Shown here: piece after piece, positions 63,230-63,282 of the stretch | Numbering within the stretch: the stretch's first letter is position 1 | How the letters are laid out: each line of letters opens with the position of its first letter | Made by a program: the position numbers and the translations under genes | The notes under the pieces: model-generated | Database searches by the model: none | The model's input: only the letters and a program-made list of their open reading frames with translations | Told to the model about the DNA's origin: nothing | Assembly: GCA_963743825.1 (NCBI GenBank) | Contig: CAVURC010000019.1 | Coordinates: 37,858 to 101,857 of the forward strand | Reading direction: 5' to 3' | Length of the DNA stretch: 64,000 nucleotides | Source: Ilumatobacteraceae bacterium | GTDB lineage: Bacteria > Actinomycetota > Acidimicrobiia > Acidimicrobiales > Ilumatobacteraceae

Positions 63230-63282
63230 CCGAAAAATGCGCTGACGTGTGCGCTGGGTGCACATTTCAGCGCACATTTCGG
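63230..63282 (-). repeat. 53-bp imperfect palindromic repeat element, copy 3 (diverged, opposite orientation)
   Basis: CCGAAAAATGCGCTGACGTGTGCGCTGGGTGCACATTTCAGCGCACATTTCGG. Ends and centre match the reverse complement of copies 1 and 2. The internal GGGGAGA segment is replaced by CGCTGA on both arms. Confidence 0.6.

Follow-up and report, generated by a model that had tools for sequence, protein, structure and literature searches.

Short extragenic palindromic repeats are well studied in Proteobacteria (the REP/BIME and REPIN-RAYT systems) and have been noted in Mycobacterium (TRIT). According to the literature, REPINs have lineage-specific master sequences and persist for a long time at the same extragenic spaces, with decay of single copies. 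TRIT ('Tuberculosis Rho-independent terminator') is present in more than 100 copies, which are mostly bidirectional and tied to gene termini (Gardner et al. 2011, PMC3152330); it is centred at about -8 relative to the stop codon, i.e., inside the coding end, and has been reported only in Mycobacterium (PMC3152330). Here, we describe a 53-bp imperfect palindrome from a 64,000-nucleotide stretch of DNA of an Ilumatobacteraceae bacterium (contig CAVURC010000019.1, positions 37,858 to 101,857; hereafter, the window), one copy of which lies upstream of the PFOR gene. This element is apparently an unannotated Ilumatobacteraceae family of a known general kind, similar to REP or to miniature inverted-repeat transposable elements (MITEs).

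REP/REPIN-RAYT and TRIT are the closest known systems, and membership in either is not established. Like the REP/BIME and REPIN-RAYT repeats of Enterobacteria, Pseudomonas, and Neisseria, the 53-bp elements are short imperfect palindromes that are almost exclusively extragenic, have lineage-specific masters, persist for long at given extragenic sites while single copies decay, and occur in many copies per genome, as singles or as doublets with a short, less conserved spacer. Unlike REP, they form a strict 53-bp unit with CCGAAAT/ATTTCGG termini instead of the 5' GT[AG]G tetranucleotide (GTAG/GTGG is not conserved in the family flanks at the hairpin foot), have a hypervariable mosaic interior, and switch core type at orthologous sites. 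Unlike in REPINs, 5 of the 14 doublets have direct-repeat interiors, and only their end bubbles are inverted. Unlike in REPIN-RAYT systems, the host is actinobacterial (Acidimicrobiia), and no RAYT (Y1 HUH transposase) was found near any copy in a weak test that covered the DNA around copies. TRIT, compared here by its published description only, is also an actinobacterial palindrome conserved in sequence and structure and located at gene termini in both orientations, but the 53-bp elements begin at +1 to +40 past the stop codon.

Three copies of the hairpin repeat in the window

The imperfect palindrome at 63230-63282 has a CCGAAA...TTTCGG frame in common with the sequences at 26924-26976 and 28277-28329. 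The pattern CCGAAA-N41-TTTCGG matches the window three times versus 0.09 matches expected by chance from shuffles, and a covariance model built from 107 distinct family copies finds these three sites and no others in the window, with E ~1e-12. On either strand all three copies fold into hairpins with a free energy (dG) of -38 to -49 kcal/mol and z of -6 to -9. The element has a polarity, with CCGAAA-TG-TGCG at one end and CGCA-TT-TTTCGG at the other, where positions 7-8 and 46-47 form a conserved asymmetric mismatch bubble (TG/TT). The copies and the repeats that abut them are as follows:

26924-26976, plus strand: copy 1, in the divergent spacer between a pirin gene (25829-26872, minus strand) and an MFS gene (27027-28274, plus strand)
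28277-28329, plus strand: copy 2, beginning 2 nt past the MFS stop, between the convergent MFS and TrmB-like methyltransferase genes
28330-28351, plus strand: tandem 11-nt duplication TAGGTGTTCGG / TAGGTCTTCGG, which abuts copy 2 and echoes the terminal TTCGG
63230-63282, minus strand: copy 3 of the 53-bp hairpin repeat, with the canonical TG...TT orientation on the minus strand
63283-63294, no strand assigned: outer echo of the terminal motif, GGGGTTTCGGGG

The preliminary description had placed a third copy upstream of PFOR in the opposite orientation, and this is borne out by the pattern and by the covariance-model strand score (73.4 bits on the minus strand versus 48.7 bits on the plus strand), which together with the TG/TT polarity shows copy 3 to have the opposite orientation to that of copies 1 and 2. 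Copy 3 is located 18 nt past the stop of the upstream open reading frame (ORF; stop at 63211) and 78 nt ahead of the PFOR ATG (63361). The outer echo GGGGTTTCGGGG, together with TCCCCAAACC (63220-63229), prolongs the copy 3 dyad past the 53-bp core. The duplication next to copy 2 is not present at the orthologue of copy 2 in two related loci, L082 and L083 (loci of relatives are given here by such labels).

In the common orientation, copy 1 reads CCGAAATGTGCG GGGAGATGTGCAC CTG GCGCACATCTCCC CGCATTTTTCGG and copy 3 reads CCGAAATGTGCG CTGAAATGTGCAC CCA GCGCACACGTCAG CGCATTTTTCGG. Relative to copy 1, two-sided changes in copy 3 are found only at 13-41 (G-C to C-G) and 14-40 (G-C to T-A), pairs 15-39 and 16-38 are the same in both copies, and pairs 17-37 and 18-36 turn into mismatches. 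The compensatory changes reported earlier are thus real at two pairs, but their extent was overstated. In the CGCTGA:TCAGCG said to replace the internal pairing, the 'CG...CG' part belongs to the invariant ends. The central TGGG said to be common to the copies is found in copies 2 and 3, and copy 1 has CTGG.

The family, its conserved ends and its pairing

A scan of species-representative genomes (one genome per species) for CCGAAATGTGCG-N20-40-GCATTTTTCGG gave 81 loci, all in 13 metagenome-assembled genomes (MAGs) of Ilumatobacteraceae (or of unclassified actinomycetes); homologues of the window MFS transporter are likewise named Ilumatobacteraceae. Together with the window, these loci contain 111 elements with at most two end mismatches, of which 108 are exactly 53 bp long and 98 keep the TG/TT bubble. 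With CGAAA...TTTCG fixed and the spacing left free, the 53-bp spacing is found in 108 of 120 occurrences. The sampled loci of one MAG, MFD00032.bin.2.104, contain 30 copies, those of another 21; the density is about one copy per 20 kb, including the three copies in the 64-kb window, and the hairpins have a dG of -38 to -60 kcal/mol. Rfam 15 has no matches at gathering thresholds across the whole window, and around copy 3 permissive E-values (at least 0.07) bring up only miRNA-precursor noise of ~21 bits versus thresholds of 70-197. There are no matches to the exact-end pattern in viral contigs, a description of such an extragenic palindromic repeat family in Acidimicrobiia was not found in Rfam or in the literature searched, and exact-protein look-ups returned no record for three window proteins and for a homologue (P0121, 99% identity) of the ORF that precedes copy 3.

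In the per-position profile the 12-bp ends are near-invariant, the left arm is moderately conserved, and positions 36-40 of the right arm are close to random; C predominates in the left flank and G in the right one. Since the family scan fixed the ends, their conservation was rechecked on copies outside the pattern selection, i.e., second copies in the fetched loci, the window's own copies, and those of L082/L083. These bystander copies have 0-2 end mismatches per 24 positions versus 15-50% interior divergence, so that the ends are genuinely conserved. The cores are genome-specific and fall into three types:

Type A, TGTGCAC..GYGCACA: the window and four MAGs
Type B, TGCCCGC..GCGGGCA: one MAG
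Type C, CAGATCnnnCCGC..TGACGCnnnGGTG, non-palindromic: six MAGs

Half-converted core chimeras are present. Types A and B differ by compensated changes of the apical stem (TGTGCAC/GTGCACA versus TGCCCGC/GCGGGCA), whereas in type C the interior pairing is lost and only the basal stem is left around a large loop in an element that is still exactly 53 bp long. There are also sister subfamilies with the same 53-bp frame and CCGAAAT/ATTTCGG termini and with other, fully complementary inner ends, and some of their copies occupy sites orthologous to canonical copies (e.g., L021 4088 and L043 6599):

L042 4904-4956 and 5940-5992, L078 3686-3738 and 4722-4774: TCTCC/GGAGA subfamily
L021 4088-4140: TCGGAGT/ACTCCGA subfamily
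L091 16733-16785: TATGCAT/ATGCATA perfect palindrome with arms of 26 bp

Among the 107 distinct copies, 75.8% of the hairpin cells are paired versus 71.6% in shuffles, and the covariation score, 0.159, is reached by none of 500 shuffles, for which it is 0.093. Nearly all of this signal comes from the differences between genome types. Within type A the six sub-terminal pairs show a modest enrichment (123 paired cells versus 97 expected, p = 0.001); types B and C show no enrichment at these six pairs. Between 15-18 and 36-39, pairing fails in 51-68% of the copies. The arms are mosaic: left- or right-arm haplotypes of 7 nt recur across loci in differing combinations. The left arm of copy 3, CTGAAAT, is also found in L069 and L055, and its right arm, ACGTCAG, in L001, and the two arms pair only because both haplotypes share CTGA.

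Wider evidence was obtained with a metagenome scan that fixed only CCGAAAT-N39-ATTTCGG and thus removed the ascertainment at the inner ends. At least 10 of the 19 interior pairs are Watson-Crick pairs in 30 of the 121 hits versus 2.7 expected, and most of these palindromic hits are on high-GC contigs (0.65-0.73 in the majority). The stems of this superfamily are divergent in sequence yet complementary (TGTGGC.., TGGCCT.., TCTCCG.., TCGGAG.., CTGCCC..), and their pairing is distributed as follows:

Positions 8-12: basal stem, 83-100% paired
Positions 15-18: middle stem, ~50% paired
Positions 19-25: apical stem, 70-93% paired

With 3-4 pair types in use at each position, the stems nevertheless stay paired. 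Dyad symmetry is therefore conserved throughout the superfamily, and the earlier view that the element is not drifting junk is upheld. The comparative check for covariation in additional copies succeeds in the superfamily and between types A and B, and it gives a weak or absent signal within one genome type. The covariation in copy 3 had been taken as a sign of selection for structure, but the segment in question (13-18/36-41) is the least constrained one, paired in 32-72% of the copies; it is the poorly constrained middle of the stem. Structure matters for the family, but the two-pair compensation of copy 3 does not demonstrate this and probably has another cause: it would be a by-product of arm mosaicism, with the arms pairing through CTGA.

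The same data bear on the possibility that a host protein binds the element as duplex DNA. This might be a nucleoid-associated, gyrase- or IHF-type factor like those of the E. coli BIMEs, or else a dimeric regulator; it would bind the 12-bp ends at a fixed spacing, with the core box co-evolving with the protein. The exact length kept even with an unstructured interior would fit such a site, as would ends conserved in sequence and not merely in pairing, the type C core that is conserved though non-palindromic, and the genome-specific cores at orthologous sites. With 41 bp between the centres of the end boxes and a doublet period of 72 bp, both spacings would be close to whole helical turns. A symmetric dimer site, however, would not be expected to have a conserved asymmetric TG versus TT bubble, and superfamily stems that vary in sequence and retain pairing fit a nucleic-acid structure better than base-specific recognition. 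In addition, a density of about one copy per 20 kb and a placement at the 3' ends of genes unrelated to each other do not resemble a regulon, and no candidate protein was identified. We regard this explanation as improbable, although duplex binding may be a secondary or alternative role. A CRP-like operator reading of the core was rejected, since the TGTGC-N7-GCACA spacing is wrong and the sites resemble a regulon neither in their number nor in where they lie; a promoter reading was also rejected, as there is no sigma-70-like hexamer pair in or near copies 1 and 2.

Gene contexts and orthologous sites

The genes next to the repeats have housekeeping roles and no relation to each other: pirin, MFS, TrmB-like methyltransferase, PFOR, and the glmU-prs-ctc-pth cluster, in which the consecutive prs, ctc, and pth genes are each set apart by copies. 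With gene contexts called by a simple GC3-based gene caller, 21 single-copy contexts are convergent, 31 are tandem, and 1 is divergent. About 50 of the 77 single copies are located 1-40 nt past a stop codon, with 25 co-oriented and 25 anti-oriented with that gene; two of the 77 overlap a called coding end. There is no bias of element orientation relative to local GC skew or gene strand.

The flanks carry traces of the elements themselves. Echoes of the termini are found on the correct side (an extra CCGAA on the left in 13 of 80 cases and TTCGG on the right in 13 of 80) versus 0-2 of 80 on the wrong side, and flank complementarity is above the shuffled-partner control (z = -3). In some flanks the terminus is duplicated in tandem over 9-11 nt, as at 28330-28351. 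Short tandem repeats abut element ends at L013 4182-4210 (GTATTTCGG, three times), L061 ~5417-5446 (CCAACT, five times), and L021 4068-4087 (CCCGAACCAA, twice), which suggests replication slippage at the hairpin foot.

The location of most single copies 1-40 nt past stop codons, with few in divergent spacers, raises the possibility that what is selected is an RNA structure, namely, a bidirectional intrinsic terminator or a stabilising hairpin of the 3' untranslated region kept by compensatory evolution in the transcript. The canonical strand, GAAA-UG-(GC-rich stem)-UUUUU, has the order of an A-tract, a hairpin, and a U-tract, the basal and apical stems covary in the superfamily, and TRIT provides the precedent of a sequence-conserved palindromic terminator family in Actinobacteria (PMC3152330). 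However, the elements have no preferred orientation (the U5 side is downstream of the nearest gene in 25 of 50 cases, and the opposite strand has CAUUU), and mismatches on the mRNA-sense strand show no excess of G·U over A·C (34 versus 35), which argues against selection acting on the transcript. Covariation within one genome is weak or absent, type C elements have the basal stem alone and are still exactly 53 bp, and copies are present in divergent promoter regions (copy 1 and the cydA/PFOR spacer of L090/L091). The copy 2 site is empty in L084, where the convergent stop codons are 4 bp apart (TGA-GCGA-TCA), so this site needs no hairpin, and a simple terminator scan leaves copies 1 and 2 uncalled. 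Overall, we find selection for a terminator possible but unlikely.

Relatives with an orthologous MFS protein of 88-95% identity differ in what they carry at the sites of copies 1 and 2. The copy 1 orthologue in L082/L083 (9896-9948) has decaying ends, the same site is occupied by a type-B doublet in L039 (2619-2742), so that a single copy and a doublet are seen at one orthologous site, and copy 1 is absent from L085-L089. The copy 2 site lacks an element also in L039 and L085/L086. In L082/L083, where the MFS protein is 95% identical, the copy 2 orthologue (11230-11282) has a flipped loop, with CCA in place of TGG, and a single substitution; the complementary loop triplets are both common across the family. 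A loop flip between such close orthologues shows that palindrome-templated rearrangement can yield two-sided changes without selection on each copy. An absence of the whole family from L084-L089 was considered and proved wrong, since genomes from the same samples carry the PFOR-upstream copy; the absences given here are at the level of the locus.

Copies 1 and 2 flank one gene in direct orientation, and they might accordingly be taken for cassette boundaries (integron attC-like sites or ends of a composite transposon) that mobilise the MFS gene, with copy 3 as a solo site. The likeness to attC is superficial: both are imperfect palindromes whose ends are conserved and whose interior varies, conserved unpaired bases lend them a strand polarity, and they occasionally flank a single gene. 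Unlike attC, the elements have a fixed length and no R''/R' core sites (GTTRRRY/RYYYAAC), integrase, or cassette arrays, and the genes that they flank are resident housekeeping genes, such as prs, ctc, and pth, which are each separated by copies elsewhere. The pirin-MFS-TrmB order is kept in L039 and L085/L086, which lack one or both copies; in L084, which lacks both copies, pirin and MFS are separated by extra genes, and in L087-L089 an acetyltransferase gene separates MFS from TrmB. As the MFS gene is syntenic in relatives without copies, this reading was rejected, and we consider it almost certainly wrong.

Two observations on the pirin-MFS region are of separate interest. In L084 (5664-9945) there are three extra genes between pirin and MFS, encoding an eCIS_core-domain protein of 768 aa, a 125-aa ORF product, and a WHD-domain protein, and pirin itself is broken up into two ORFs. 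In the window, a 14-bp palindrome, ATTGCGCCCGCAAT, is located at 26901-26914 in the divergent pirin/MFS spacer to the left of copy 1; it is kept with small variations in L082/L083, L039, and L085-L088, whether the repeat is present or not, and probably serves as an operator of the pirin promoter, the MFS promoter, or both.

Most copies are single, and the 14 doublets have a period of 71-73 bp in all cases but one. Their layout is always a unit with AA..CR ends, a spacer of ~19 bp, and a unit with TG..TT ends, where the ends of the first unit exactly complement those of its partner. The interiors are inverted in seven doublets and form direct repeats in five, and three of the direct-repeat pairs match at 23-27 of 29 positions and have different ends. 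Such near-identical interiors with different ends point to conversion of the interior alone.

The PFOR-upstream copy occupies the same position, with an unchanged orientation, in five genomes (the window, L059, L041, L090, and L091), 25-40 nt upstream of a conserved block, GGGGACTTTGGGCGGTCGTC. Its core belongs to type A in the window, L059, and L090 and to type C in L041, and it is a perfect variant palindrome in L091. In L059, L090, and L091 its upstream neighbour is cydA and not the ORF seen in the window. Retention of the element before GGGGACTTTGGGCGGTCGTC even with a different upstream neighbour, and the perfect 26-bp-arm palindrome of L091, would be consistent with a PFOR-specific role of copy 3 in cis, as an operator or leader (shared with cydA where that gene is adjacent). 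Yet the same element is present at the 3' ends of unrelated housekeeping genes throughout these genomes, and its interior follows the family type of the host genome, which is family behaviour and not a locus-specific constraint. We therefore view a PFOR-specific operator as highly unlikely.

The GGGGACTTTGGGCGGTCGTC block itself (63310-63329 in the window, ~30 nt before the PFOR start) is near-invariant in the five genomes, while the rest of the spacer is variable, and it is likely a PFOR promoter or regulator site. Its GGGACTTT half may resemble a DosR-type half-site. The ORF upstream of copy 3 (62195-63211) reads as 129 aa versus ~220 aa in its homologues, so its start may be mis-called in the window or the ORF may be frameshifted. 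Between the homologue of this ORF and PFOR, L090 (10001-16552) and L091 (10001-16662) have a cydDC-type ABC transporter gene, cydB, and cydA; these cyd genes are missing from the same interval in the window and in L041.

Probable origin of the repeats and a proposed enzyme

We favour, with moderate confidence, the explanation that the 53-bp elements are a REP/REPIN- or MITE-like non-autonomous family of DNA hairpin repeats inside a wider CCGAAAT...ATTTCGG superfamily of fixed 53-bp length. The hairpin, formed in single-stranded DNA or as a cruciform, and the constant termini would be recognised by a trans-acting enzyme during copying or conversion, and in each lineage the propagating ('master') form would keep its palindromy. 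Resident copies may then decay, swap arms, flip loops, and duplicate termini through palindrome-driven recombination or template switching, and the two compensated pairs of copy 3 would have arisen through arm mosaicism among palindromic progenitors and not through copy-specific selection. In a transcript, the element would fold into a 3' hairpin with a possible part in termination or stabilisation, a secondary effect that would not be what shapes its sequence. Like MITEs made of terminal inverted repeats (Neisseria Correia/NEMIS elements and the foldback type), the elements are small, non-coding, and intergenic, with conserved termini, a hairpin that spans the whole element, presence/absence polymorphism between relatives, and co-transcription with neighbours. 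Unlike MITEs, they are much shorter, and neither a target-site duplication nor a parent insertion sequence with the same ends was found in the loci compared.

Several results weigh against this explanation. A tblastn search of 789 kb of DNA around ~120 copies, which covered only DNA near copies and used sequences of IS608 TnpA, IS200 TnpA, and E. coli RAYT as queries, gave nothing better than E = 0.6. Y1/RAYT queries likewise detected no transposase by tblastn in 30 palindromic metagenome loci, paralogue clustering of 467 neighbouring proteins revealed no recurrent partner family, and no long element (parent insertion sequence) with the same ends was present in 790 kb. The filled copy 2 site (the window and L082) and the empty one (L084) show no recognisable target-site duplication. 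The 53-bp length is strict even in type C with its unstructured interior, which a plain hairpin model would not predict. The retention of the PFOR-upstream copy in five genomes, in three of them in a divergent promoter region, could reflect a local host function. Finally, in ~20 comparisons of orthologous spacers between MAGs the orientation of the element was always the same, even where the core differed; the ends and length are identical at such sites, and the core is of the host genome's own type, across A, B, and C. Constant orientation combined with core switching cannot be explained by insertion in random orientation and requires either in-situ conversion, for which there is some support from doublets and chimeras, or a highly specific re-targeting.

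Alternatively, the repeats may not be MITEs that transpose in the usual way but hairpin sites that stay resident and in register through a sequence-specific, non-RAYT enzyme, which would recognise CCGAAAT/ATTTCGG at the fixed 53-bp spacing and rewrite or convert the interior in place. This would explain the fixed position, orientation, ends, and length combined with a host-type core, as well as the chimeras, the arm mosaics, the doublets with shared interiors, and the strict length of elements with an unpaired interior. We consider such an enzyme quite unlikely. A weak candidate for it is a protein of ~300-330 aa with an AbiEi_4 helix-turn-helix domain and a C-terminus with sub-threshold similarity to DUF559 / REase_MTES_1575 (PD-(D/E)XK-like), encoded between prs and ctc/pth in the following loci:

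L042 4959-5951: AbiEi_4+DUF559-like ORF
L078 3741-4733: AbiEi_4+DUF559-like ORF
L060 2989-3888: AbiEi_4+DUF559-like ORF
L065 142-1032: AbiEi_4+DUF559-like ORF
L012 2-577: degraded AbiEi_4+DUF559-like ORF

This ORF is flanked by copies in the five genomes and is the only nuclease-like candidate near the repeats; the association may be incidental, since every gene of that cluster is flanked by copies.

Whatever propagates it, the Ilumatobacteraceae family calls for caution in the interpretation of palindromes: two-sided changes alone are not equivalent to selection for structure, since arm exchange, loop inversion, and templated repair mimic it. The family is also a natural experiment, in which a sequence-constrained part (the 12-bp ends, the bubble, and the length), a core box that tracks the lineage, and sub-terminal arms that drift and recombine are separable from each other, and many orthologous sites across species are available for its study. 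In annotation, the covariance model serves as a marker of gene boundaries and of candidate 3' hairpins in uncultured Ilumatobacteraceae from soil.

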